DNA of 64,000 bases, taken from NCBI GenBank assembly GCA_021735655.1, contig JAIPGM010000005.1, forward strand, positions 45,461 through 109,460, in the 5' to 3' direction. This document shows positions 48,262 to 64,000 of the stretch, piece by piece (the first letter of the stretch is position 1; each line of letters begins with the position of its first letter). The stretch is from Candidatus Omnitrophota bacterium. GTDB lineage: Bacteria > Omnitrophota > Gorgyraeia > Duberdicusellales > 4484-171. The notes beneath the pieces are model-generated. The model saw only the letters and a list, made by a program, of their open reading frames with translations, had not been told where the DNA came from and ran no database searches. Position numbers and translations under genes: made by a program.

Positions 48262-50010
48262 TTAAAAACTAACTTTGTAAGTAACCGATCCGCCAAGTTC
48301 GTAAAAGTCTTCTTTAAGCTGAGTTTCTAAATCAACCAAAAGAGTGGTATTTTTCTTGTTGAAGAATTCAAAACGGGAACCGACATTAAAGCTTGAGGGT
48401 GCCGGTCGGTAGCCTGAAGTTTCAAAAGAAGCCCCACCGCCCTCAAAACTGGCTAAAGACTGCTGTTTTTCATTCACCACACTGTAGAAATAACGAAAAC
48501 GAAGCTCGGGAGTGAACAGCATCTTCTCGCTCTCAAAAACCTTACTCAACCTAAGACCTCCGCCCAGCTGTAAAGTTTGGTAATTCTGAGACTCAACGCT
48601 GAGATTCAGCGCTCCGGCTCCAGTCTCAGTATAATCATCGAGCTCGAGATTAGTGTAGCTTAAAGCTAAAAGCGGAATGATCTCGAAATTCTTCTTTTTC
48701 AACTTATAGCCGCCTTCCAGGTAAGCTGAGAGCTGCTGGCCATCGTAATCAGCATTAGCCGTCCTTTCGATAGAACCGACAGTTACCTTTCTCGAATTAT
48801 TATATTCACTGTAGCCGTAAGTCAGCACTGCATCAAACAGATAAGGCTTATCCGGATGGCTATATTCTCCGTAAAGGCCGGTCTGATAACTTGTTATCCG
48901 AGTGCGCTCTTCGTTATCTTTTGACCTGATCTTACCTTCGCTAAACCCTTGGTCTATACCCAAGCGTAAAGAATTATTCAAAAACCCGTGGTCAAAGCCG
49001 ATAACATTACCCCAAAGCTTAGCCCGGTAACCCTTACTTGCACCACGCTCACCCTGCCGGGCATAGCCACCATAAGACTGAAACCAGATATCGTTATTAA
49101 AAGAATCCTCTAATGAGTCTTCCTCAAGGCTATCTTCCTCGATCTTTGAATCTTGTAAACGCAATACCGTGGTCCTGACAAATTTATCCAGGGAACCGTT
49201 TGAGGTATTGATTACTCCCCTGTTAGCAGAAAGGCCCATGTCGTTCTCGGCCGAAGCTACGCCACCACCAGATAAAGCTTCGAGAGTATTAAGAATCGTG
49301 GTCATGTCCGAAGAAGGATTGCTTATATTATCGAGAACCCGACCGACAGCAGCTGAATTAGAGCTGGAAGCCTGGCTTTCAAACCCAGAGGTTGACCGGT
49401 CAGCAGTTAAAACCAAGTTGCCTCCGGAATTTGACGCGCTAAATGACACCCGAGAGTTACTTGAGGTAACTGTAGTCGGAGCATTCCCTATTCCTGAACC
49501 ATTAGTATCGATAATAGTAAAGGTTGCATTTGACGGTATATAGATATCATTGCTAACTGTAACCGCCACTGTACTTGCTGTATTTACCACTGCTGCGGCA
49601 CCAGAAGTTATCCTGCCTGAGGTTGAAGGCGTATCAACGGTCAGGTTAAGGGTAGTCCCTGATCCTTGAGTATAAATGCCGGTACCGCCAAGAGTAAGAG
49701 TATTGGCTCCCAAGCCCAAACTGCCGGCATTATCTAAAGTAAGGTTTCCGGTAATTGTGCGGCTGCCAGTAAGATTTAAAGTTCCGCCGTCTCCTGCCGA
49801 ATCTACAGTAGTAGTTACGGCCGCCAGGTTATGCCCTAGAAAAAGTGTACCCTCCCCGGGCAGACGTCTGACTGCGGCTCGATTCGCTATGAATTCCGCA
49901 TAGAAGTCACCAGACCCAGCAAAAATCACGCCAGAATACGCCTGATTCCGACGGATTCCGAGGATCCGAAACAAAGCCCTGCCTTTGCCCTTGAAGCTCA
50001 AGGGTGCCAA
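48262..50010 (-). pseudogene. Autotransporter-like outer-membrane protein (Gly/Thr/Ser-rich passenger + C-terminal beta-barrel ending in F); N-terminus lacks a signal peptide, possibly 5'-truncated next to the IS
   Basis: C-terminal ~280 aa has alternating amphipathic beta strands and a terminal aromatic. Passenger has TLNLTG repeats. First 60 aa are non-hydrophobic and lie in the higher-GC DNA adjoining the transposase. Confidence 0.5.
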
Positions 50011-50139: not shown

Positions 50140-51295
50140 TTGTTGTAGAATGGACACTTACTCAAAACAACACTTTTTGCCATGAAAGGAGCTTTTGTAT
50201 CATGAACCACACCCAATCTTATACCATAAACGGCTGTATATTCCAAGAGTTTTTACTGCTTCTGGGCAGGGTTGTCCACAGTGACCTGATCCGGCAGATG
50301 GAGTACCTGAAAGTGGAGAATGAGGTTCTGCGGACCAAATGCCCGAAACGGATAACCACAAGCCCGGCCGAGAAACGTAAGCTCATCAAATACGGCCTTG
50401 CCTGCAGGGGCAGAATAAAAGGCATTATATCCATCGTAAGCTATTCTACCTTCAGGCGCTGGGTAAATGGCGATATCCGCAATAAATATAAGCCTTCCAA
50501 GCAAGGCACGCCCAGAAAGACCACACAGGAAATAATAGACCTTATAGTACGCCTTGCCCGGGAAAACTGCGACTGGGGCTATGGCCGGATAATGGGCGAG
50601 TTAAAGAAACTAAACATCATCAGACTGTCCCGGAATACCATAAAGGCCATAATGCGCCAGAACGGCCTTGATCCGGCACCAATAAGGGCCCATGACTCAT
50701 GGGATGCCTATATAAAGCGCCATTTCGAAACCTTATGGGCTTGTGACTTCTTTACCAAGACCATCTGGACAGCCATGGGGCCCAAGCTATTCCATGTATT
50801 ATTCTTCTTGAATATCAGAACCCGGAAGGTCCATATAGCCGGTATAACAGAAAAACCTAAAAAGGAATGGGTGATGGAAGCGTCAAAGACGGTATCGTTT
50901 CTATTCAAAGATAAGACCAAGAAGCTCCTTATTCGAGACGGTGATGCTAAATTCCCGAAAGAGTTCAATAGCCTTTTCAAAGACTGTAATACAAAAGTCA
51001 AAAAGATACCGCACCGGTCACCGAATCTTAACCCTTATGCCGAAGGCTTCGTGGGAACCATAAAAAGGGAATGCACGGATCACTTCTTCGTGTTCGGCGA
51101 ACGTCACTTCGAATACCTTGTCCGGGAATACGTCAAATACTATAATACCAAACGTCCGCATTCCGGCCGGGATAACCGGCCCCTTGAATATCATTCGGAG
51201 AAATCAACCGGCAAGCTCAAATGCGACTCACGCCTGGGTGGGATGATTAAGCATTATTATTGGGGGTAACGGAAGGTCACAGTAACTCATCCTCA
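50140..51295 (+). mobile_element. IS element (IS481/IS3-like, single DDE transposase ORF); ends approximate
   Basis: Transposase ORF with a local rise in GC relative to flanks. Terminal inverted repeats could not be defined by eye. Confidence 0.4.
50202..51269 (+). CDS. DDE transposase with N-terminal HTH/leucine-zipper and rve integrase core domain
   Basis: AAAGGAG RBS. rve-type motifs (..WACDFF.., RDGDAKF, NTKRPHSG). 355 aa. Codon usage and GC differ from neighbours. Confidence 0.8.
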   Translation: MNHTQSYTINGCIFQEFLLLLGRVVHSDLIRQMEYLKVENEVLRTKCPKRITTSPAEKRKLIKYGLACRGRIKGIISIVSYSTFRRWVNGDIRNKYKPSKQGTPRKTTQEIIDLIVRLARENCDWGYGRIMGELKKLNIIRLSRNTIKAIMRQNGLDPAPIRAHDSWDAYIKRHFETLWACDFFTKTIWTAMGPKLFHVLFFLNIRTRKVHIAGITEKPKKEWVMEASKTVSFLFKDKTKKLLIRDGDAKFPKEFNSLFKDCNTKVKKIPHRSPNLNPYAEGFVGTIKRECTDHFFVFGERHFEYLVREYVKYYNTKRPHSGRDNRPLEYHSEKSTGKLKCDSRLGGMIKHYYWG

Positions 51296-53045: not shown

Positions 53046-55826
53046 CTACTTGTTATATTTCTTATAAATTTCTGTTAAAAACTCAAACCCTGCTCTAGCA
53101 TATTTATCACAAATAGAATTTGCAATTTCATTTTTAAAACCAGCTAAATAAATTTTTTCAACAATAGATTGAATATTTTCTTGCTTATACCACGGAATAC
53201 TTTTTTCTATCATTATTAAAAATACATTCCCTACGTCTTTTGGGTTAACGTCTGCTAATTTATCGAAATACTCAAGTAAGAATGAACTATGGTAACGCTC
53301 TTCTACATATTTAATTGACTGCTTCAACCAATCCACCTGCTCTGTTTGTAATTGATCAAGAAATACCGCGAGTAGATTCAAATCGGAAAGGATGTCTTTG
53401 TTTTTGTCTTCTTTTCCTTTTGTTCTGTTAAAACAATACCGCCAAAATTCAAATATTCTTTCCTTTTGGTCGCAATCTAATTGCGCATCCCTATGAGCCC
53501 AAAAAAGACTGATCACCTCTTCAATATCATTTGGGTCCCATTTTTCTAAAATATATTTAAACAAACTGTCTTGGCCATCTATAGTCTCTTGCCCCCTTAA
53601 GTAGGATATTGTTACATTTTCTACAATTCGTCTTTTCGCTTGATCGTTCGAAAATTTTGTATCAAGCGCACGCCTTAGATGACCGTTATCTTTTAATAGA
53701 TTGTAGATAACAGCATAAACGGTATTGACATAAGAATATCCTTGCATAGCGCATCGCCAATGCTTTTCTTCAGCAGGAAAGATATTATTAATATTCGAAG
53801 TAACCCAATTTTTCTGCAAATAATACAAATTAGGCAAATAAGCACCAGATAGGCTTGAGAATTCGAAGTTTCCTTCCTTTGTTCTTTCAATCTCCCGACT
53901 AAATAGTGGCGCTACTGTCTTCCAGAAATCCTCTTTTTCTTTTATACCTTTATCAGGCAATTTTTCGAAATCACGGTACCGCCTAAGGACATAACTTTTA
54001 AAACTCTCTAGCACATGACCCTTTGTGGTATTAATCGCTTCGGTAAGCGCGTCTTCATCTTTACCACTTGCTGTTGATTCTTGTTTATCAAGCAGGGTCC
54101 GAATAATATTGTCTATTCTCTTATAATTATTCTCAGTAAGATTCAAATCGTCATTCTGAATCCCATTCTTGATCAAATCCGAGATAGCCGCAGGAATCCA
54201 ACTTTTCTTAGGTTCAAGGGGAAACTGACTCTCCTTCTCTTTCCCGTCCCACAATACATCATCGCAGACGATAGCTTGACAAAAGTCTAAAATCTTGTCC
54301 CAATTAATCTCTTTTTTATCCCGCGCAAGTTCTTCAAACGCCTCTATTACATAATACCAATATTCGTAACTAGACTTCTTGAACTCAATGAGACAATTTT
54401 CAAAAAATCCCTGTTTTAGCTTAATCGCTTCTTTTAAAGACTGGCCTGCTTCTCGTATCGCAGTTTCTCCAAAGCGGTTTTTACCTTTGAAGTTACCAAG
54501 GAAAGTAATAATTTCGTTAATGCTTCCCTGTGCCAACAATTCACTAGCTGAAAATAGAGACTCATCCCCCCATGATACAGGTCCAATATAACTTAAGAAT
54601 TCTGGATGTTCCGGCTTATAATCAATCCCTTTAAAATATTTCTCCTCTACATCATTCGGTATTGAATATCCCGAAACTTTAATAGCATATAGCCATCGCC
54701 TGCGAAGTATCGCATCCAATTTTTCCTTATCAACATCTTTTCTCCAGTCCCCGGACAACTGAACAACATCATTCATCAATGAATTCTGAAGATCTTGAGA
54801 AAATTGTTTAAAGTGGCGTGTTATCAGCTTATACAGTTCGTGGTGATAATTACTTTCGAGGAAAATAGTTTTACCGGTATCGCGAATGATTTTTTCACTA
54901 GTGGTTTTGTATTTATCAAACAACTGTCCTGTAATATACAATGAAAAACGTCTAATAATATGCTTGTCTGACCTAAAGCATGATTCAATAATAGTAGACG
55001 CTTCCTGTGAGGACGCATAGGCAAGAAACACATCTCTTAATCCAGAAACTAAAATATGTCGATATTCATCTCTGCTTATATTCTGTTCGCTATCTTCGAT
55101 TGCTGGACGCCACATATAAGAATATGCGTCATCCTTTTCCGTCACAATATGCTCAATTTTCTTCTTAAGAATTTCGACAATTTCGGCACCATATTTTTCG
55201 CCCAAATGCGTAGCATTGATCTTAAATAATTCCTGCAAACTATGGGCACCAAGGCTATGCCGATTTTCAATCCTGATGAAGTCAAGAATGATTTCTATAA
55301 GTCGGCTAACTTTTTGTAACTCCTCTGGTTCTTTCAATAAGTTTGGCAAAAGGGTTTTGCCAATCTCCAGCATTACCATTGAGGCATCAAACTTACTGTC
55401 AAGCCAATCAGCAATAAGCTCAATATCTTTTATTTCCACGACATCTGACGGCAAGAGTGCCATGATTTTAACAAAAGACTGCCACGTACGCCAATTATCT
55501 GCTTTTTTGGTCTTATCATCGGGACGAGTCACCTCACGAATAATTGACATTAACTTTCGGACATGCTCTTTATTTCCAGATTTCGAGCATTCTTTGGATA
55601 CCTTTTCTAAATATGTCAAAGCAGGCCAATATGGAATTGAGAAGAAACCTTTGTTTTTTTCCGACTCTACTGGAGAAGGATTATTTGTTGAACCAAAATA
55701 ACCATGATCTTTAAGCAAAGTAAGATATTCAACCTTCGACAATTCATTAAAGACCTGTGCTCGGTATTCAGCCCCTTTTGCCATGTAATCTAAAAGACTT
55801 TTTTGCTCTGGAGTTATATTCGTCAT
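53046..55826 (-). CDS. Large (926 aa) all-alpha-helical repeat protein, second gene of the SIR2 operon; no NTPase motifs
   Basis: No Walker A/B. Helix-rich composition throughout. Start overlaps the SIR2 stop (ATGA). Confidence 0.5.
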   Translation of the reverse strand: MTNITPEQKSLLDYMAKGAEYRAQVFNELSKVEYLTLLKDHGYFGSTNNPSPVESEKNKGFFSIPYWPALTYLEKVSKECSKSGNKEHVRKLMSIIREVTRPDDKTKKADNWRTWQSFVKIMALLPSDVVEIKDIELIADWLDSKFDASMVMLEIGKTLLPNLLKEPEELQKVSRLIEIILDFIRIENRHSLGAHSLQELFKINATHLGEKYGAEIVEILKKKIEHIVTEKDDAYSYMWRPAIEDSEQNISRDEYRHILVSGLRDVFLAYASSQEASTIIESCFRSDKHIIRRFSLYITGQLFDKYKTTSEKIIRDTGKTIFLESNYHHELYKLITRHFKQFSQDLQNSLMNDVVQLSGDWRKDVDKEKLDAILRRRWLYAIKVSGYSIPNDVEEKYFKGIDYKPEHPEFLSYIGPVSWGDESLFSASELLAQGSINEIITFLGNFKGKNRFGETAIREAGQSLKEAIKLKQGFFENCLIEFKKSSYEYWYYVIEAFEELARDKKEINWDKILDFCQAIVCDDVLWDGKEKESQFPLEPKKSWIPAAISDLIKNGIQNDDLNLTENNYKRIDNIIRTLLDKQESTASGKDEDALTEAINTTKGHVLESFKSYVLRRYRDFEKLPDKGIKEKEDFWKTVAPLFSREIERTKEGNFEFSSLSGAYLPNLYYLQKNWVTSNINNIFPAEEKHWRCAMQGYSYVNTVYAVIYNLLKDNGHLRRALDTKFSNDQAKRRIVENVTISYLRGQETIDGQDSLFKYILEKWDPNDIEEVISLFWAHRDAQLDCDQKERIFEFWRYCFNRTKGKEDKNKDILSDLNLLAVFLDQLQTEQVDWLKQSIKYVEERYHSSFLLEYFDKLADVNPKDVGNVFLIMIEKSIPWYKQENIQSIVEKIYLAGFKNEIANSICDKYARAGFEFLTEIYKKYNK

Positions 55827-56812
55827 TTGTTTAATAACCGCCTTATGACATCTTTTTCTTCTTCAAAATTAGGCTTATTGACTTTAGCTTTTAGAACAGC
55901 TGCCCATTTAATAATGATCTCTTCCAAATGAACGTGTCCTTTTTTGTCGATGTTATAGTCAATCAATTTTATGCCACAATGTCTTTCAAAATATCCCTTA
56001 AGATGCTTATAGGCAGCGTTATCCCTGCTCATACGTGGATATAGCCAAAAATGCCTTGGTTCTTCAACCCTCGGGGAATTGCTTTTTCTAACAATGAACT
56101 CCAATATTTCTTCTTCTTCCAGTCCATATCCAATAAACAAGACAATCTTCCGCGAAAACAAATCATTTAAAAAATCTATAACAAATCTATTCATATAATG
56201 ATCCATATAATCTCTGGTGGTCATAATCATGGTTTCTTTGCTTTTTACGCTTCCATGAAGATGAATAACCGAGCCTGGCTGATCTAGTCGCGCAGATGTT
56301 AAATCCTCTTTCCTGAAAAATACAGAAGTAGGAGAGGTAATTCCAGAGTTTCCCAGAGAACTGTCATCACCTTTTGAACTTAATATTTTATTATCAGCGA
56401 GCTTATCAAGGCAATCATCATAATTAGTCGTTACAAAAACAGTCCCTATCGAATACAAAGCATCGTATATCGCCGTTTTTACCGCTATTTCTTTATCCTG
56501 AAAAATTAACCTTCCATAATCATAATCGATGCCTTTTGCTTTGTAGTTATCAAAAAAAATAGAGAGTTGAATCTTGGGGTTTAAGGCTAAGAGAGAAGAT
56601 TTTTCTGAATATTCGATGTGCCCTTCTTTATAGAGAATGTCAATCGCCCGTCTTCCAAGCTCAACCCATGAAGGGTACCCCAATAATCTAGATACTCCAT
56701 TGCCGACAAACAAAATTAATTTGCCGTTTTGAGCTGCGTCGATAATAGACGAATGATCTTCTATGTTGGGAATAATTCTTGACGCAGGATTTTTATCTTC
56801 TATCGTCATCAA
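55823..56812 (-). CDS. Stand-alone SIR2_2-family (defence-type sirtuin-like NADase) domain protein
   Basis: Motifs in the canonical order: KLILFVGNGVSR (GAGxS equivalent), VFVTTNYDDCLD, VIHLHGSV (catalytic His), IVLFIGYGLEE. 329 aa. Confidence 0.75.
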   Translation of the reverse strand: MMTIEDKNPASRIIPNIEDHSSIIDAAQNGKLILFVGNGVSRLLGYPSWVELGRRAIDILYKEGHIEYSEKSSLLALNPKIQLSIFFDNYKAKGIDYDYGRLIFQDKEIAVKTAIYDALYSIGTVFVTTNYDDCLDKLADNKILSSKGDDSSLGNSGITSPTSVFFRKEDLTSARLDQPGSVIHLHGSVKSKETMIMTTRDYMDHYMNRFVIDFLNDLFSRKIVLFIGYGLEEEEILEFIVRKSNSPRVEEPRHFWLYPRMSRDNAAYKHLKGYFERHCGIKLIDYNIDKKGHVHLEEIIIKWAAVLKAKVNKPNFEEEKDVIRRLLNK

Positions 56813-57157
56813 TAATACCCCCTAATATACGTTTCTAAATCTACCTCTCCGTCCAATACCTCTGCTTGATCCAAAACCTTTTTGACGGGTACAGTATATT
56901 CACCGGTCGGTTAGTTCCCCACTACCTGCTAACCCTTCTACCAACCTAATTTACCAACCCATGATTCTTACTGGTTAGTTATCTGGGCAGTTTTCAGGGT
57001 AGTCTTTTTAGGATATTCAAAATATTTGTTACTCATACATGACCTTTATAATATTACTTTCATAAAAAATGCCATAACCTGAATTCTATCGGGCTACGGC
57101 AAATCGCAATGGCAGGTCTTTTAGTCTAAAACTCTCGAGCAACCTTCGCCCATCAAA

Positions 57158-57931
57158 TTAGCACTTTAAACATTTTTCTTTTTTAGTCGACTGCTGTTTT
57201 GAATGTATTCGTTCCCGCGCCATCCGACAATACTCTGGAGAAATATCAATGCCGATATAATTTCGTTTAAGGTCCCTTGAAACAACGGCTGTCGTTCCCG
57301 AGCCCATAAAAGGATCAAGTACAATTTTAGCATTGGTTGATGATACAATTCTTTGAATCAAAGATACAGGAAATGGAGCAGGGTGCCCATTTTTCATTTC
57401 CTGCGTAAATTCCCAAACATCACCGTAGGCATTCGCTTTTTTTGCCAATTTGAAATCCGGTTTAGCTATCAAGTATATAACCTCATAAGTAGGCAAGAAA
57501 TACCCTGCGTTAAAATTAATTCCACCTTTTCTTTTCCAAACAATAATCTGGCGCACAGGAAATTTACTGACAATGTCATGCCGGTCTTGAAGCAAGCCAT
57601 TTTGTACCCGCCATTTATGATTATAAAAAATTGCTCCGTCATTTTTTATTAATCTATACATTTCATCGAGACATTTAATTTGCCATGACACATATTCTTC
57701 ATGAGGCATACAGTCATCATGATGACTGTATCCGTTAATCAAAGCGGCTCTCGACCATTTACCACCGCGACCATCTTTCATACCGTTTCCTGTAGAATTC
57801 TTAAGATTGTAAGGCGGAGATGTCACAGCCAAATCAATCGATTCGTCCGGCATTGCTTTCATTACTTCTAAACAATCACCGCAAATGATCTTATTCAGAT
57901 AATCCTTAGGAAATTTTAGTTTAGCACTCAT
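57158..57931 (-). CDS. DNA amino-methyltransferase, beta-class (motif IV SPPY N-terminal, motif I FMGSGTT C-terminal); N4-cytosine or N6-adenine
   Basis: LAVTSPPYNL near the N-terminus. DPFMGSGTTAVVS near the C-terminus. Confidence 0.8.
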   Translation of the reverse strand: MSAKLKFPKDYLNKIICGDCLEVMKAMPDESIDLAVTSPPYNLKNSTGNGMKDGRGGKWSRAALINGYSHHDDCMPHEEYVSWQIKCLDEMYRLIKNDGAIFYNHKWRVQNGLLQDRHDIVSKFPVRQIIVWKRKGGINFNAGYFLPTYEVIYLIAKPDFKLAKKANAYGDVWEFTQEMKNGHPAPFPVSLIQRIVSSTNAKIVLDPFMGSGTTAVVSRDLKRNYIGIDISPEYCRMARERIHSKQQSTKKEKCLKC

Positions 57932-57955
57932 TTCATTCTTTCGATAACAGGTTAA

Positions 57956-58762
57956 TCAAAACACCTCTTTAACATCATCATATAGATCCGACCACACGCC
58001 TTGCTTGAGCCGAAATTTTGTTCCGTGGTTATGTCCCGTTCGGGCGTCAAAATCAATCAACAAACTTCCTGCCTCTACACAGCACAAGAATTTCTCAAAT
58101 GAAAAACCAGATAGAACAGAAAGGTGTTGATAGCAAAAATACTCATGCCCGTCGTCAATTTTGGCCTCAGCGATAACGTAAAAACAATTCTTTATTTTTT
58201 CGCCAATCGCATACTTCAAATCTTCAAAGCCCCAATAAGGCTCCGGTGAAATCGCTCCCAAGCCAGCTCTTTTTTTAACAGAAGATAGCCATGCCTTGAT
58301 CTCAGGGTCTGCCATATCAGCCTTCTTTGAGTCAAATACGAACTTCAACTTTTTAGCAGTACGATCAACGACTACTGTAAATCCGCGATTTGTAAAACTA
58401 CTAGAGCTGGTGGTAGACCGAAAACTCATTTCAGTTTTGGGGTATTTAAACCCAGCCTGTTTATGTGGCCAACCATATTTTGGTAAAAGAATATTGCTTA
58501 CAATCCGAGCCGCTGTTGGCGATGGTTCAATGTGCTTTAATGTTATAAGCGAAGAAGAATGCGCTCGCTGTCCTTTAAGCTCCCATTCTCGAGCATTAGG
58601 AATCGGCAGATTGTTTTCTGTAATGCCAAGAAGAACTTCAAGCGTGTTGCCAACAGCGCCATCATTTCGAGTGTCTCGTGTTTGTTTTACGCTCTTATGC
58701 CACCCTTTCGATGCGATAGCTTTAATTTCCTTGATTAACTCATCCTTTGAAAATAATTTCAT
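57956..58762 (-). CDS. Type II restriction endonuclease, MvaI/BcnI-like
   Basis: Sandwiched between two MTase genes with 24- and 13-nt spacers. N-terminal pattern MKLFSKDEL..DGAVGNTLEVLLGI.ENN..EWELKG matches my recollection of this family. A candidate ExK (VIAEAK) follows acidic residues. Confidence 0.5.
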   Translation of the reverse strand: MKLFSKDELIKEIKAIASKGWHKSVKQTRDTRNDGAVGNTLEVLLGITENNLPIPNAREWELKGQRAHSSSLITLKHIEPSPTAARIVSNILLPKYGWPHKQAGFKYPKTEMSFRSTTSSSSFTNRGFTVVVDRTAKKLKFVFDSKKADMADPEIKAWLSSVKKRAGLGAISPEPYWGFEDLKYAIGEKIKNCFYVIAEAKIDDGHEYFCYQHLSVLSGFSFEKFLCCVEAGSLLIDFDARTGHNHGTKFRLKQGVWSDLYDDVKEVF

Positions 58763-58775
58763 AATCTCCCTTTCA

Positions 58776-59768
58776 CTAATACCTTTTTTGGGGCGGCTTC
58801 CAGAAATCTAAAAGATATTCAAAAGTTACACCCATTGTTATATAATTGCTTGGCCAGCCAAAAATACCAATGCCATTGACCACATTGGTACGATCCCATA
58901 TTATGACATTTCGTAATTCATAGCCTCTCTTACGGAGTTCCTCAATCAACGAAACGTGAATTGTAATGCGCCGGTTTTCCCACCACATATCCGGAACATT
59001 AATAACGCAATGTGCTTTCTCTCTAAGCAGAGGAAGTAACCCTTCAAAAATATCTCCCATTGCCGTCGTATAGGAATCAATAGCCATTGTGCCTAGATCA
59101 CGCACATCTTGAGAATATTGCTCAACTTTACCCAATTGCTTGTTGTTCCTGTCGCGTCGAGATTTGTTTTGACGGGATCTATTTAAAAGATTTGCGTAGG
59201 GCGGAGATGTCCAGATCAAACTTACAGTATTGGGGGAGAGATATTCTGAAATATTTCTGGCGTCATCCTGAATGGCCATCTGAGCACATGCATTAAACAG
59301 GTTAGGATTCTTTTGGAGCCGCTTAACACATAACTCAATGTATTTTTTTTGGAGATCGAACCCAACGGCATTTCGGTTCAAATCAGTTGCGGCAATAAGT
59401 GATGTTCCACTTCCAACAAACGGGTCAATAACCAATTGTCCCTGATGTGTGAATAATTCGATGACTTTTTTTGCGAGGGATATTGGAAAAGTTGCAGGAT
59501 GAACAGATTTATCTCTTATATCGCGAGTTTCATAAAAAAACTGCCAAACTCCTATTTGGGATTTAAGCCAGTCCTTGGGGCCCATGCAATTAATATGTGT
59601 ATGGCCACAATTACATAAACGCTCGTGCGCCATACCTAGCTTTGTGCCATATAAAGAATCGCCTTCAAAAACGGCCAAGGCTTTTTGCTCTGTTTTACTC
59701 TTATCATTGTGACCCTGATCAATAGATCTTTTGTCAACCGCGCTATGACCAAAACTTTGATTTCCCAT
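58776..59768 (-). CDS. Second DNA amino-methyltransferase (motif I DPFVGSGTS precedes motif IV SPPY)
   Basis: DPFVGSGTSLIAATDL at ~aa 113. IWTSPPYANL at ~aa 187. 330 aa. Confidence 0.8.
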   Translation of the reverse strand: MGNQSFGHSAVDKRSIDQGHNDKSKTEQKALAVFEGDSLYGTKLGMAHERLCNCGHTHINCMGPKDWLKSQIGVWQFFYETRDIRDKSVHPATFPISLAKKVIELFTHQGQLVIDPFVGSGTSLIAATDLNRNAVGFDLQKKYIELCVKRLQKNPNLFNACAQMAIQDDARNISEYLSPNTVSLIWTSPPYANLLNRSRQNKSRRDRNNKQLGKVEQYSQDVRDLGTMAIDSYTTAMGDIFEGLLPLLREKAHCVINVPDMWWENRRITIHVSLIEELRKRGYELRNVIIWDRTNVVNGIGIFGWPSNYITMGVTFEYLLDFWKPPQKRY

Positions 59769-59825
59769 TTCTATCTCTTTTCCCCTTCCCTCAATCGATT
59801 ACTTCGTTTAGGTAAAATAAAAAAA

Positions 59826-60446
59826 TTAGATATTTCGAATCGTAGTAACTACAATACCCTGCACCTGAAAATCTCTAGTAACCACTATTGGCTTATGTTG
59901 TTTATTGCTCGAACACGGTTTCAAAACGACCGTATCTCCTGATGAATTATATTGTTTAACTGTAACCTCGTTGTCAACTAAAGCAATGATGACATCTCCT
60001 GTGTTTGCGGTTTCCTGTTTGCGCACGAGTAGGAAGTCACCATCTTCAATACCTTTCTGATTCATTGAGTCGCCTTTGGCTCTGACAAGAAAATATTTAT
60101 GCGGAAGTTGGGCTAATTTTGTTGAAACCGGAAACCACGATTCGATATTTTCTTCAGCTAAAATAGGAATACCACAGGCAACAGTACCGACAAGAGGCAC
60201 GCTGATTGTCTGAACATTATCACTGTTATTAATATCCATAACCAATCGCAAGGCCCCTGAAGGATTTCTACGCAACACTCCTTTAGAAATTAATTTGTTA
60301 ATCAATAGGGCAACAGAGCGAGGTGAACGATATCCTAAAGTCCCCATTAAGTCTCTTAATGAAGGGCATTTGCCAAAATTGACAAGAGCATTTCGGATGG
60401 CTTTAATGACAATCGCTTCTTTATCGGAAATCATTATATTGCTCAT
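59826..60446 (-). CDS. LexA/CI-like repressor with S24 peptidase domain (ORF-track extent 59826..60527; start more likely at 60446 or 60434)
   Basis: N-terminal HTH (LVNFGKCPSLRDLMGTLGYRSPRSVALLINKLISKG). VACG cleavage-site analogue. S24 Ser/Lys region (AKGDSMNQ..). A perfect palindrome lies at the start. Confidence 0.7.
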   Translation of the reverse strand: MSNIMISDKEAIVIKAIRNALVNFGKCPSLRDLMGTLGYRSPRSVALLINKLISKGVLRRNPSGALRLVMDINNSDNVQTISVPLVGTVACGIPILAEENIESWFPVSTKLAQLPHKYFLVRAKGDSMNQKGIEDGDFLLVRKQETANTGDVIIALVDNEVTVKQYNSSGDTVVLKPCSSNKQHKPIVVTRDFQVQGIVVTTIRNI

Positions 60447-60463
60447 GTATACAATTGTATACA
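60446..60463. promoter_or_regulatory. Perfect 18-bp palindrome TGTATACAATTGTATACA at the repressor start (SOS-box-like operator candidate)
   Basis: Exact palindrome with the half-site pattern TGTATAC..GTATACA, reminiscent of CTGT-N8-ACAG LexA boxes. It overlaps or abuts the repressor start codon. Confidence 0.5.
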
Positions 60464-61085
60464 ACATGGATAACTTTGTCAATGATTTATTTTCTTGATG
60501 ATGAAAAGGCAACGCTGATAATAACATATGTGTTTTTCAGAACATCAAAACTTGTTCAGGTTTTACTGACTTTCAAAGCCACGGCTTAACAGGACAAAAC
60601 TACATTTATACTGACATTCGCATGTCAATGATGACAATTTTGCCCTGTTTTGACCCTGTTTTGAGCCATTTTGGGCCCTTTTTACTGACATATTGGCATT
60701 GGAATGTCAGGGTGTACCGGCCGTTTTGCCCTCAAATCGTGAAATAATTCCAATCATAACATCAATAACTACAATATATTACGCATAAATAGTCTTTTCC
60801 AAGATCATGATGCGAATGACAAAATTGTCCCTGACATCGTTTTTTGAAGTCAAAATCACTGACAAACTGCGCCTCGGCTGACCCTCGGCCCAGGCCCGCC
60901 CGGGAAGGACCCACAATAATAATGCGTGCGGAGGAGGGTGGCAAGGAGGCCAATCTCCACCCTCTGCCAAGGCGCATTTACTCCATTAGAAAGCCGTCAT
61001 TTCTAACAGAGTTTACCTGACAAAACCTTTGCGATGGAACAGCGTCCGAGATCATCGCTTGGGCTTCTCCGCATTATTTGACTTG

Positions 61086-61769
61086 TTACTCCGTTACCGC
61101 TTCCGAAACATCCACAGCAAGGGAAGACTGCACACTGAAACGTTTCGTAAGTTTGTCTATTTCTTCCTCGATATCGAAGCTCCGCACCCAGCTCTCCTTT
61201 CGCTCGATATCCTTTTCGATATCCGCAACCGTCGGCTTACTTCTATCGGCCAAGGCTCTGTCTTTGGCCTCATGAAATATGTCATACGGTTCACTTCCAA
61301 GCGCCGGACTGAACGATGGATATTCCTCAAGACGTCTTCGTGCGGTTTCCGGATGACCATATATTGCGATAGCCATAGCGTAAAGCCTGCCTTTTTCACG
61401 CCAGAGCTCAAGCTCCACCTTCAAACGCTTGCTGTTAAGCACTCTGCGCTCTGTCACGATATTGCGTGATTCTTCCTCATGCAGGGCTGTCAGTGTTTCA
61501 GAAAGCTTTGCCTTTAGCTTTTCGATAGTTTCGTCAACGATCTCGAGATTTATCTTGGCCTCATCGAAACGCTTGTCCGCTTGCTTTACCGCATCCGGAC
61601 TTATTTTCTCGTCGCATATTGCCCGGCTTCTGATTTCTTTTACCTTTTCCTTCGCCTCGTCGTGTTCCTTCTGATATTGCCTTTGCTTTTTCTCAAGCGC
61701 TACTATCTGTTCGACAATCTCATCCGGCGTGCTTTTCTTATTCAGAATATTCAGAAAATTAAGTTTCAT
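61086..61769 (-). CDS. Coiled-coil hypothetical protein
   Basis: 227-aa ORF, highly charged with heptad-like patterns. Preferred over the shorter overlapping plus-strand ORF. Confidence 0.45.
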   Translation of the reverse strand: MKLNFLNILNKKSTPDEIVEQIVALEKKQRQYQKEHDEAKEKVKEIRSRAICDEKISPDAVKQADKRFDEAKINLEIVDETIEKLKAKLSETLTALHEEESRNIVTERRVLNSKRLKVELELWREKGRLYAMAIAIYGHPETARRRLEEYPSFSPALGSEPYDIFHEAKDRALADRSKPTVADIEKDIERKESWVRSFDIEEEIDKLTKRFSVQSSLAVDVSEAVTE

Positions 61770-61775
61770 GATTTT

Positions 61776-62195
61776 TTATCTCCTTTCGATTTTGTTAGGT
61801 GCTGTAATAGATAAGGCTTCTTCCAGGCTACAACCATTCGATTCCTGATAACTTCTGGCACGTTCGATATGCTCCAACTGCTCGGCAATTAAAGCGCTGT
61901 CGGAATCAACCTTTTTATCCGGCGCTGTCCGGCTTAAAGCCTCGGTTAACGTACACTCGAATTTATCCCTGTACTCATAGGCCCGCTTGAGATGTTCAAG
62001 CCGGATATCGCCGGTAGAGACCATTCCCGGATGTTTCTTTGCTGTCACCCGTAAAGCCTCGGCAAGAGTGCATTTATTGCGCTTCATGTAGATATTGGCG
62101 TCGATTAAATGCACAAGTTGTTTTTCTTCCTCCGAGCCCGGGACATAACGCTTGATCATCTGACTGATCGTATTCAATACATGTAATTGGTTCAT
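61776..62195 (-). CDS. Small protein with three ~40-aa internal repeats (C(T/S)L(A/T/E)EAL..TA)
   Basis: Repeats RNKCTLAEALRVTAKKHP / KFECTLTEALSRTAPDKK / ESNGCSLEEALSITAPNK. Confidence 0.45.
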   Translation of the reverse strand: MNQLHVLNTISQMIKRYVPGSEEEKQLVHLIDANIYMKRNKCTLAEALRVTAKKHPGMVSTGDIRLEHLKRAYEYRDKFECTLTEALSRTAPDKKVDSDSALIAEQLEHIERARSYQESNGCSLEEALSITAPNKIERR

Positions 62196-62282
62196 TTTTA
62201 GTCTCCTCCTGTTTTGGTTTTCGTTACTATGAAATTACCCATGGCTTTTTATCTACACCCTCATAGAATCACCTCCCCCTGT

Positions 62283-62549
62283 GATGACCGTGAACGTTGT
62301 GAACGTAAATTCCTGTCTTTTCTAATTACCTCTTTTTGCGTAGTTTCTTGACCTTTTACCCTTATTTTTCTAAACCTTAAAAAGCAGGAAATTACGTTCA
62401 AGATCTTCACAATCTTCATAACTTGTTATGGCTTCATGCGTTACCCCATGAATATGGCTGTGACCGTGGAAGGCTGATATTCACAACGTTCACTCGAATC
62501 AGCCCGGCGTATCTTCGCAACGTTCACAGACGTTCACACCTTCGTTCAC
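62283..62549. repeat. Iteron-like array: two GTGAACG repeats (62290-62305) and four inverse-oriented CGTTCAC copies (62485-62549) bracketing an AT-rich spacer; candidate origin
   Basis: Direct reading gives GTGAACGTTGTGAACG, and then CACAACGTTCAC, GCAACGTTCAC, GACGTTCAC, TTCGTTCAC. TGACCGTG is also duplicated at both ends. Confidence 0.55.
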
Positions 62550-63992
62550 ACTGTTTTCAAAAAACGTATCGCCTTTATTCTTGCGTAAAATAAATAGCTT
62601 CCGGCCCGTTCCGGATTCCCGCTTTTTGCTACGTACAATATCAATTCCTATACCACGCATAACCGGCGCTATCCTCATAAGCTCCGATGATAGAGCCTTG
62701 GGATTATCGGGAATGCGTTTATCGAACCCGGACTCCGGCTTAATATACTCAAGCAAGGTAGTGGCTGAACCGCACCACTGTCCGCCGTTGGATTCCACAA
62801 GATAGGCTAACTTCTGCGTAATAGGGTTCTCTTCGGCAGTATCTTCCCATTTATACTCAACCGACTCCTGATACTTTTTGAAAAACTCATCCTGTGAATA
62901 TCCCAGTGTCTCGGAAAGGGCCGCGCCCCACCTGGCAAAGTCTGACATTCTAAACTTTTCATGGCCGGTTACTTTATTAACGATGGCCATAGCATTGGAT
63001 ATCGCCGAGAAGAAACCGCCCAATATGCCCGGAAGCGATGCCTGCCATTCATCGGCAATCTGCTTTTCGGGCCTTGTTTCTTTTAAAGGCGGGATATCGA
63101 AGATGATGGATCTATCCAGTAAATCCGGCCTGCATACGGAATTGCCTATACCGTTTAATACAAAGCACCGGCGGTATGTCCGTATGAATACCTCGTCATT
63201 CGTGTAAAGCGAGCGTTTCATGTCACCTTCACCGGTTACGGCCCGGCAGAGGAAATCACTGAACCATTCGGAAATCTTCGAAAGGTTATCGAAAGTATTT
63301 ATCCAGTGTTTATCTGCTATCATTTGAGCCTGATCCAAATCCTTTGGGCTTGAGATGAGCATAACCTTGGAAGGGTCGCATAGGCTTTTAATCAACCGGG
63401 AATTATTGGATTTTCCCGTGCCTTGCTCGCCGACTTGAACAGGTATAACGTGGGGAATATCTGGAATAAAAAACGACGCTAACATCGTCATGAAAAGACA
63501 GTAATCATCCTTGTTGATATTACAGAATTCCAGAAACCTCTTCGGATCATGTCCTTTAACAGGTATAACCTGCGTATCCTGATGATTGTATCTTTTGAAT
63601 ACCGGCGGAAGGTAGACAACCTGCCAGCCTTTCTTATCTATAAAGACTCCCTTCCAATCGGGTGTAGTAAGATCATAATAAATGCTGTCTTTATACCAGC
63701 CGACACGGTTATAAAGTTCGAATTTGGGCGAATCTTCGCATTTTGCCTCTGCCTGAATCCGTGCCTGTTTTAATGCTTCGTTACATGGCGGGCTTTTGTA
63801 TTTATAGCGGTAGCGCTTGGCAAGCCAGTTCCTGAAGCGGGAGCTGTTGGTCTGGCATACCTCCAGATGATTATCGATAGGGAGCACTATAAAGGAGTTG
63901 CCTTGCTGATCACGATAATAGTCTGTTATTTCTTTTTCGCAGTATCGTGTAAGTATTTCACCCTGGGTGGGATGCGCCTTGCGATAATTCAC
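62499..63992 (-). CDS. VirE/P4-primase C-terminal-like P-loop ATPase (replication protein of a mobile element)
   Basis: Walker A VGEQGTGKSNNSRLI. A hydrophobic stretch followed by D (Walker B-like). 497 aa. Next to the iterons. Confidence 0.55.
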   Translation of the reverse strand: MNYRKAHPTQGEILTRYCEKEITDYYRDQQGNSFIVLPIDNHLEVCQTNSSRFRNWLAKRYRYKYKSPPCNEALKQARIQAEAKCEDSPKFELYNRVGWYKDSIYYDLTTPDWKGVFIDKKGWQVVYLPPVFKRYNHQDTQVIPVKGHDPKRFLEFCNINKDDYCLFMTMLASFFIPDIPHVIPVQVGEQGTGKSNNSRLIKSLCDPSKVMLISSPKDLDQAQMIADKHWINTFDNLSKISEWFSDFLCRAVTGEGDMKRSLYTNDEVFIRTYRRCFVLNGIGNSVCRPDLLDRSIIFDIPPLKETRPEKQIADEWQASLPGILGGFFSAISNAMAIVNKVTGHEKFRMSDFARWGAALSETLGYSQDEFFKKYQESVEYKWEDTAEENPITQKLAYLVESNGGQWCGSATTLLEYIKPESGFDKRIPDNPKALSSELMRIAPVMRGIGIDIVRSKKRESGTGRKLFILRKNKGDTFFENSVNEGVNVCERCEDTPG

Positions 63993-64000
63993 CTGGCAAT

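Follow-up and report, generated by a model that had tools for sequence, protein, structure and literature searches.

Does the group of short repeats near the end of the window (the whole stretch of 64,000 nucleotides analysed here) serve as the replication origin of an integrated mobile element, and if so, which protein recognises it? The sequence-only reading had noted two GTGAACG copies at 62,290-62,305 followed by copies on the opposite strand, which a motif count finds in exactly these places, and had taken the cluster for an iteron-type origin beside a primase-like ATPase of a mobile element. Computational analysis supports this proposal on several grounds, namely the conservation of the array, the identity of the neighbouring protein, the co-variation between the two, the match to the origins of SaPIs and the island setting of related loci. 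We consider it likely that an integrated mobile element has its vegetative replication origin (oriV) in the array at 62281-62549 and that this array is read by the winged helix of the primase-helicase whose gene ends within it.

Layout and conservation of the repeat array

The repeat cluster itself is genuine. In the 64-kb window the heptamer GTGAACG occurs nine times against an expectation of 3.0 +/- 1.75, a count that none of 100 shuffled sequences reaches, and six of these nine copies fall inside 62290-62549. The bare hexamer GTGAAC stays at background level window-wide (15 found, 14.8 expected, no enrichment), and the GTGAAC signal is therefore that of a local cluster: six hexamers are crowded into 270 bp, where 200,000 random placements of 15 sites gave a maximum of five, and the pentamer GTGAA/TTCAC is present eight times in 281 bp, with 0.36 expected (Poisson P = 4.6e-9). 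If degenerate copies are included, the array comprises about 11 GTGAAC-type sites, spaced 9-12 bp. Its parts are the following:

62290-62296 and 62299-62305, plus strand: perfect GTGAACG copies (motif count)
62487-62493, 62521-62527, 62531-62537 and 62543-62549, minus strand: perfect GTGAACG copies (motif count)
62513..62549, minus strand: iteron block 1, three direct GTGAACG copies and a degenerate GCGAAG, kept in relatives
62479..62493, minus strand: iteron pair 2, GTGAACGttGTGAAT, period 9, directly past the stop codon
62460..62465, plus strand: single inverted one-mismatch iteron GTGACC, lying within TGACCGTG
62396..62410, minus strand: iteron pair 3, GTGAAGatcTTGAAC, period 9, degenerate in the window copy, bordering the A/T-rich spacer
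62306..62393, no strand: A/T-rich spacer of 88 bp, 70% AT, proposed unwinding element
62290..62305, plus strand: inverted iteron pair 4, GTGAACGttGTGAACG, 9-bp spacing, facing the spacer from the far side

The window genes in the array region are all encoded on the minus strand, and along this sense strand the order is three to four direct iterons at the end of the gene, the stop codon, a 9-bp pair, an inverted copy, a second pair, the spacer and an inverted pair, with opposed pairs flanking the spacer on the one side (62396-62410, minus) and on the other (62290-62305, plus). The last repeats had been said to overlap the 3' end of the ATPase gene, and they do: its TGA stop codon is located at 62499-62501, and all copies of block 1, three perfect and one degenerate, sit within its last 17 codons. 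The direct copies of this block (62543-62549, 62531-62537, 62521-62527) follow each other at spacings of 12 and 10, and the degenerate GCGAAG at 62513-62518(-) at a spacing of 9. The remainder of the array occupies a 303-bp intergenic region (62196-62498) between the stop of this gene and an ORF of 139 aa. Here, pair 2 consists of GTGAAT at 62479-62484(-), 9 bp from the copy ending at 62493, and forms a perfect inverted repeat of 14 nt with 62290-62303. Pair 3 is made up in the window of GTGAAG at 62405-62410(-) and TTGAAC at 62396-62401(-); its counterpart in relatives is the perfect GTGAACatcGTGAAC, found as GTGAACatcGTGAACG in the related loci L001 and L002 and as GTGAACattGTGAACG in L004 and L007. 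The single inverted iteron is kept in relatives as ACGGTCACA, and L008 and L010 have it as a perfect ACGTTCACA.

Two statements of the sequence-only reading on this region hold in part. A duplication of TGACCGTG at both borders had been described; two copies are present (62285-62292 and 62461-62468), but the second is internal, not at a border, and itself contains the one-mismatch iteron. Likewise, an AT-rich spacer of about 180 bp had been postulated, which is correct for 62306-62393 but not for 62419-62479, where the AT content is 54% and degenerate iterons are found. The true spacer, with its 70% AT, is only moderately A/T-rich against a genome of 62% AT (z about +1.2), and its least stable 60-mers rank in the top 2.5% of those in 60000-63900.

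Related loci were collected in a one-genome-per-species scan, which gave 23 of them, mostly from Omnitrophota MAGs and one from the complete chromosome of Ca. Velamenicoccus archaeovorus LiM, and in a further scan of metagenomes, which gave 574 more relatives, 80 of which were kept. The layout of the array is conserved in about 40 or more of these loci, again mostly Omnitrophota MAGs; wherever a related locus has enough sequence, the parts recur in the same order at and past the 3' end of the orthologous gene. Every relative that is at least 74% identical and has downstream sequence carries the GTGAA array in the same place and order. In an alignment of 11 such GTGAA sequences (A2), the iteron columns are 93% identical and the columns between them 72%, 23 of 45 columns being invariant in the former and 25 of 208 in the latter (Fisher 4e-8); pair 4 (GTTCACAACGyTCA) is invariant in 11/11 sequences, and so are the GTGAA cores of pair 2, with a variable sixth base. 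Relatives of 61-66% identity show the same architecture with the hexamer (T)GTGAG(G/C), and their alignment (A3) repeats the pattern with 96% against 73% identity and 55/65 against 52/278 invariant columns (Fisher 1e-23). The sequence of the spacer is not conserved in A2 and A3; its A-rich character and its length of 70-110 nt are. Motif densities also speak for a true cluster, the density in the array being 5-53 times that in the rest of each locus, and relatives with flanks of 6-10 kb to either side of the array have the motif gathered in a single cluster.

Directly past the stretch that encodes the winged helix, branches of only 32-40% identity possess hexamer arrays of their own, whose copies take both orientations and include tandem pairs of 8-12 bp (ACTACA x14, AGCTAC x16, CGTTGC x8-10, GCGTCA(C) x5-8 and CCTACA x9). 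In L033 and L035, which are far relatives, the ORF appears to continue through the array from end to end. One copy of 75% identity is situated on a contig classed as viral by IMG/VR, and remote homologues occur also on small plasmids and in one Microbacterium phage; on one of these plasmids, pM44602, no obvious iterons were seen 3' of the homologue.

The primase-helicase and the proposed recognition of the iterons

The genes at the array and the proposed reader of the iterons are arranged as follows:

62499..64000, minus strand: 3' part (499 codons and stop) of the gene for a PrimPol / D5-like SF3 helicase / winged-helix protein of about 780 aa, as judged from homologues, profile and fold
62574..62843, minus strand: coding region of the C-terminal winged helix (residues ~386-475 of 499), proposed iteron reader
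62502..62573, minus strand: disordered C-terminal tail of 24 aa (…SVNEGVNVCERCEDTPG; pLDDT ~31), whose codons are largely the in-gene iterons
61776..62195, minus strand: 139-aa triple-repeat (C[TS]LxEAL) protein, a neighbour and probably not origin machinery

The ORF runs off the window at 64000, and the N-terminal PrimPol domain is encoded beyond this end. The gene specifies a replication protein that combines an NrS-1-like PrimPol, a D5-like SF3 helicase and a winged helix. Hundreds of homologues exist for the 499-aa fragment, and the full-length ones (74-89% identical, 777-791 aa) have an N-terminal PF22763 (NrS-1 pol-like HBD) or PF09250 (Prim-Pol) domain; PF01807 is a third precomputed domain among them. 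Taken alone, the fragment yielded no match in Pfam, NCBIfam or PHROG at E <= 0.01 and none in a single-sequence search of the PDB. Profile A1, built from 51 homologues, has matches in the NrS-1 primase-polymerase (6a9w, E = 8.5e-31) and in the N-terminal primase part of SaPI5 PriRep5 (7ola, E = 1.2e-27). An AlphaFold2 model of the fragment (pLDDT 86.4) was matched by Foldseek to ASFV PrimPol, the NrS-1 CTR, the poxvirus D5/E5 helicases and SaPI5 PriRep5, the TM values for the helicase fold against 7ola_C being 0.49/0.55. The Walker A motif is GEQGTGKS. In the same model the last folded domain (residues ~386-475) adopts a winged-helix topology, and the iteron-binding proteins RepE and Pi are among the structural neighbours of this C-terminal domain. 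The earlier designation as a VirE/primase-like ATPase can thus be kept for its second half, a primase-like ATPase; VirE is not supported, as the 499-aa fragment does not match the PF05272 profile. One remote homologue from a Streptomyces plasmid is annotated as 'virulence-associated E family protein'.

Which part of this protein, if any, reads the iterons can be approached by comparing the two iteron types. In the 33 loci that are 57% or more identical, the wing motif is GTGRK in 16/16 loci of the GTGAA type and GTG[RK]R in 17/17 loci of the GTGAG type. A residue of the recognition helix (position 435 of the window protein) is A in the GTGAA type, with K in L054, and W or L in the GTGAG type. 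When a neighbour-joining tree is built from the helicase part only, it mixes the two types, which implies that the type was switched, or the domain swapped, several times independently: L044, with 77% identity to the window protein and a position as sister of the GTGAA clade, is nevertheless of the GTGAG type, and L013, L046 (66%) and L054 (61%) are of the GTGAA type but fall outside the main clade. This co-variation is the best available computational evidence that the C-terminal domain of the primase-helicase is the reader, a role which, as far as sequences go, may also belong to another co-inherited protein of the element. The tail peptide changes together with the iteron type, from VNEGVNVCER in GTGAA loci to CEEGxEEGVSRG in GTGAG loci, from which it follows that constraint at the level of DNA dominates in that stretch.

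Two neighbouring gene products were considered as binders and rejected, both being absent from many array-bearing loci. The triple-repeat protein, named as a candidate binder in the sequence-only reading, is found only in the window, L022, L004-L006 and L032, and as the array is present in all loci, most of them lacking this protein, it is an unlikely binder. The second, a coiled-coil protein of 227 aa, is absent from a number of loci that do have the array, namely L001, L014-L016, L020, L023 and L024. Generally, the genes beside the array vary between loci and the array stays. The triple-repeat protein consists of three repeats of ~40 aa, each with C[TS]L[AET]EAL…TA(P)(D/N)K; a weak PHROG match of unassigned function was its only hit, and an exact-sequence look-up of the contig returned nothing.

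Some further observations concern the end of the protein. Nearly all relatives terminate in an acidic stretch followed by RP[FY] and the stop codon (for example, EVDSDRPF or EDDPRPY), an ending which resembles the acidic, aromatic-tipped tails of SSB and of T7 gp4/gp2.5 that recruit partner proteins. It is missing from the window copy (…CEDTPG*), L022 (…CEDKPD*) and L040 (…CEDKPD*), and this loss may represent mild decay or a variant of the lineage. With its degenerate pair 3 and without the otherwise conserved C-terminal RP[FY], the window copy as a whole seems mildly decayed, which weighs somewhat against the origin reading. In L012 (6142-7134), the primase-helicase ORF is truncated to 330 aa and the iteron array intact; this locus appears to be a decaying copy that has retained its origin.

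Known origins and other readings of the array

Among known systems, the Rep-ori modules of SaPIs match the design. Directly past rep, their origins carry six to 12 iterons of five or six nucleotides around an AT-rich centre, which has two or more of them to either side in opposite orientation, and their Rep is a self-loading helicase whose C-terminal winged helix recognises the iterons (Qiao et al. 2022, PMC9371898). The window has about 11 sites that extend from the last 17 codons of the gene past its stop, an AT-rich centre between opposed flanking iterons, conserved in A2 and A3, and an SF3 helicase with a C-terminal winged helix. The window family and the SaPI/PICI systems (SaPI5 PriRep5, SaPI1 Rep1) are also alike in the fusion of primase, SF3 helicase and C-terminal winged helix, in clade-specific iterons and in being hosted by an integrative island with a repressor. 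The C-terminal domain may also bind its cognate iterons specifically, as that of Rep does, a reading to which the co-variation of iteron type and C-terminal residues (33/33) and at least six other hexamers in the branches lend indirect support. There are clear differences, too. The hosts are Omnitrophota and other uncultivated lineages instead of Firmicutes, similarity to SaPI Reps at the sequence level is lacking in the helicase and the C-terminal domain, a serine recombinase takes the place of the tyrosine integrase, and the window array starts inside the coding region and encodes the protein tail. Packaging or interference genes were not seen, and the element is at most a putative satellite. 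SaPI/PICI elements leave the chromosome and replicate on their own once induced, PICIs in dependence on a helper phage; the window family may behave in a similar way, to judge from the serine recombinase, HTH_17 and LexA/S24 genes of relatives.

By analogy with SaPI Rep and the alpha protein of phage P4, we infer iteron binding, melting, self-loading of the helicase and episomal replication, which could proceed in the following way. Once the LexA/S24-type repressor is relieved, the element would be excised by its large serine recombinase, and oligomers of the primase-helicase would gather on both iteron flanks through their winged helices. The ~88-bp A/T-rich spacer would be distorted and then melted, the helicase would load itself, the N-terminal PrimPol domain would synthesise the first primer and the host polymerase would continue from there.

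Phage P4 (GenBank X51522) resembles the window in having a primase-helicase-origin-binding alpha protein of ~777 aa and, immediately downstream of its gene, the crr iterons, arranged as pairs at 9-bp spacing and as a triple at 10-11 bp that take both orientations about a stretch of A-rich DNA. In its type-1 form (TGTTCACC/GGTGAACA), the P4 iteron shares the core GTGAAC with the window heptamer GTGAACG and differs from it in the flanking bases; the common core is best treated as coincidence or convergence. Homology to alpha was rejected, as BLASTP returned nothing and hhalign aligned only Walker A at a probability of 1.2%. Furthermore, the P4 primase is of the DnaG/Toprim rather than the AEP type.

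P4 also suggests another reading. It needs a separated ori and crr, both with iterons, and the cluster directly downstream of its alpha gene is crr and not ori, which is 4.5 kb away. The window iterons might similarly be bound by the primase-helicase in a regulatory or auxiliary capacity (autoregulation, copy-number handcuffing or an enhancer like P4 crr), with initiation at a second site, and part of the element does lie beyond 64000. We hold this to be improbable, since relatives with 6-10 kb on both sides have the motif in this single cluster and the cluster shows the complete grammar of a SaPI ori, opposed flanking iterons around an A/T-rich centre.

Should the repeats instead be operator or centromere-like sites, they would be bound by another protein of the element (the 139-aa protein, the 227-aa coiled-coil protein or the small HTH_17/DUF5659 protein encoded upstream of the primase gene) and control the downstream operon or partition. 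Their place in a 303-bp intergenic region upstream of the next operon would suit such a role, parC-type centromeres also consist of two blocks of repeats phased at ~10 bp, and small HTH proteins are conserved beside the primase gene. Against this stand the absence of the triple-repeat protein from most loci and of the coiled-coil protein from several array-bearing ones, the lack of ParA or ParM nearby in the gene content of the window and its relatives, the extension of the iterons into the coding region of the primase gene and the way in which iteron type tracks the C-terminal residues of the primase-helicase across a discordant helicase tree. A scan for promoters and terminators in 61700-62900 gave no promoter-like site, and hence no sigma-70-like promoter in the intergenic region, and a single terminator-like hairpin inside the gene. 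This reading therefore seems distinctly improbable to us as well.

A function as an arm-type att site, a packaging site (pac/cos) or a transfer origin is very unlikely. The element is integrative, and arm-type sites of integrases and some pac sites are indeed short repeated motifs, but the array lies inside the element, with one of its genes on either side and kilobases to the island borders, the gene content of the window and relatives shows no terminase, relaxase or capsid genes, and the recombinases observed are of the large serine type, which to our knowledge does not use arm-type repeats. Finally, that the cluster is due to chance or is the by-product of a repetitive C-terminal peptide can practically be dismissed: three copies do lie in coding sequence and encode the repetitive peptide VNEGVN, but the cluster statistics, the non-coding position of most copies in both orientations, the predicted disorder of a tail whose sequence changes wholesale with the iteron, and conservation of the array across about 40 loci all speak against it.

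With the array taken as an origin of the SaPI kind, other well-known iteron systems can be set apart. Class-A theta iteron plasmids have iterons of 17-22 bp, DnaA boxes and a dimeric Rep with two winged helices, whereas the window iterons measure 6-7 bp and the initiator is a primase-helicase of 780 aa; DnaA-box-like sites are at chance level (14 in the window, 16 expected), and the only one by the array, at 62249-62257, has one mismatch. In mini-F and R6K, the iterons are 19-22 bp long, and the initiators RepE and Pi are neither helicase nor primase and depend on DnaA and DnaB. The origin of phage lambda has its iterons within the coding sequence of its own initiator O, in the middle of the gene and 19 bp in length, and O is neither a helicase nor a primase. 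The window is like lambda in that block 1 lies inside the last 17 codons of the initiator gene, and in L033 and L035 the ORF apparently runs through the whole array. NrS-1, poxvirus D5/E5 and ASFV PrimPol, the best matches in sequence and fold, share the combination of PrimPol and D5-like SF3 helicase; an iteron origin beyond the 3' end of the gene is not known to us from any of them.

The design is one already known from SaPIs and phage P4, which here extends to a distant phylum without a new mechanism. What is added, as read from the sequences, is a natural GTGAA/GTGAG switch in putative specificity that is associated with two residues, and an apparent origin running into the reading frame of its initiator. 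A rather doubtful possibility is that the PrimPol-SF3 family, with over 570 relatives from metagenomes and seven or more iteron specificities, uses a simple, readable recognition code, in which one wing residue (GTGRK vs GTGRR) and one helix residue would switch between GTGAAC and GTGAG; origin and C-terminal tail would then evolve as a unit, because the origin runs into the reading frame of the initiator. If this code were true, it could provide orthogonal, self-contained replicons (initiator and ori in less than 3 kb) for phyla without genetic tools, such as Omnitrophota. A probable origin and its probable reader have now been located for integrative elements that occur widely in Omnitrophota and in further uncultivated bacteria; they are found also in Ca. 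Velamenicoccus archaeovorus, whose genome is complete. With several natural specificities, the unit of initiator and ori of less than 3 kb could seed shuttle vectors and could model the change of specificity in winged-helix initiators.

The surrounding element

Compact islands of ~10 kb house the relatives of the window locus, together with defence cargo and genes for HTH_17 proteins, a LexA/S24 repressor and a large serine recombinase. The ~10-kb island of the Velamenicoccus-type locus lies between greA and miaB and comprises the LexA/S24 repressor, YhcG, DpnI, HTH_17 proteins, the primase-helicase, the array, the coiled-coil protein and a large serine recombinase of 561 aa. One related island is inserted at tRNA-Asn. 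In the relative of 89% identity, tRNA-Asn and a serine-recombinase ORF of 554 aa overlap each other at a distance of 1.4 kb from the primase gene, on its upstream side. The recombinase of the window element would lie beyond 64000. A preprint on IME1 from Dehalococcoides describes neither an origin nor iterons.

The downstream cargo of the window at 53046-60527(-) encompasses a LexA/S24 repressor, an N6/N4 methyltransferase, an MvaI/BcnI endonuclease, a second methyltransferase, a SIR2-like protein and a protein of 926 aa, and looks like a defence island; relatives carry other cargo, including DpnI, YhcG and NOV_C. Pfam, PHROG and NCBIfam scans of the ORFs of 139, 227, 71 and 926 aa gave essentially nothing. 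Upstream of the LexA/S24 gene (59826-60527, minus), a near-consensus sigma-70 promoter, TTGACAtgcgaatgtcagTATAAAt, is found at ~60600-60628(-), embedded in TGTCAG/TGACA repeats that resemble operator sites. Farther away, an IS-type rve transposase (50202-51269, plus) and an autotransporter beta-domain protein (48262-50010, minus) are located in a locally GC-richer stretch (0.43-0.45); the two may mark where the island ends on its far side, or else have been inserted separately.

A GC-rich element of ~56 nt (GGTCCTTc...GAGGGTCrGsCGAGGCGmAGTyTGTsAGTGA) is present in the window at 60850-60912(-), inside the ORF 60762-60977(-), and also in L001 (7770-7825), L012 (7383-7439), L014 (7726-7780), L009 (8609-8663) and others. 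It is common to both iteron types and lies immediately past either the putative origin or the coiled-coil gene; short TGTC/GACA repeats come next. It belongs to no Rfam family, and a structured RNA was rejected after a test of structure and covariation, which gave no support for either; as DNA, the element could have a regulatory role or bind a protein. When the window, L014 and L001 were scanned with Rfam, no family was found at the array; the sole match was a fluoride riboswitch (RF01734, 60.9 bits) in the flank of L001 (2424-2486), which is unrelated to the array.

About 10-20 nt past the last inverted iteron pair, at 62255-62272(-), there is a conserved, strong Shine-Dalgarno-like GGAGGTG, with equivalents in L004, L007, L008, L010, L017-L019 and L021, which lies upstream of the ribosome-binding site that the next gene has of its own. 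It is followed by a mini-ORF of one to five codons, ATG-TAG in L008, L010 and L017 and ATG AGG GTG TAG in the window, and together they may constitute a start-stop or leader element, or merely a conserved DNA motif.
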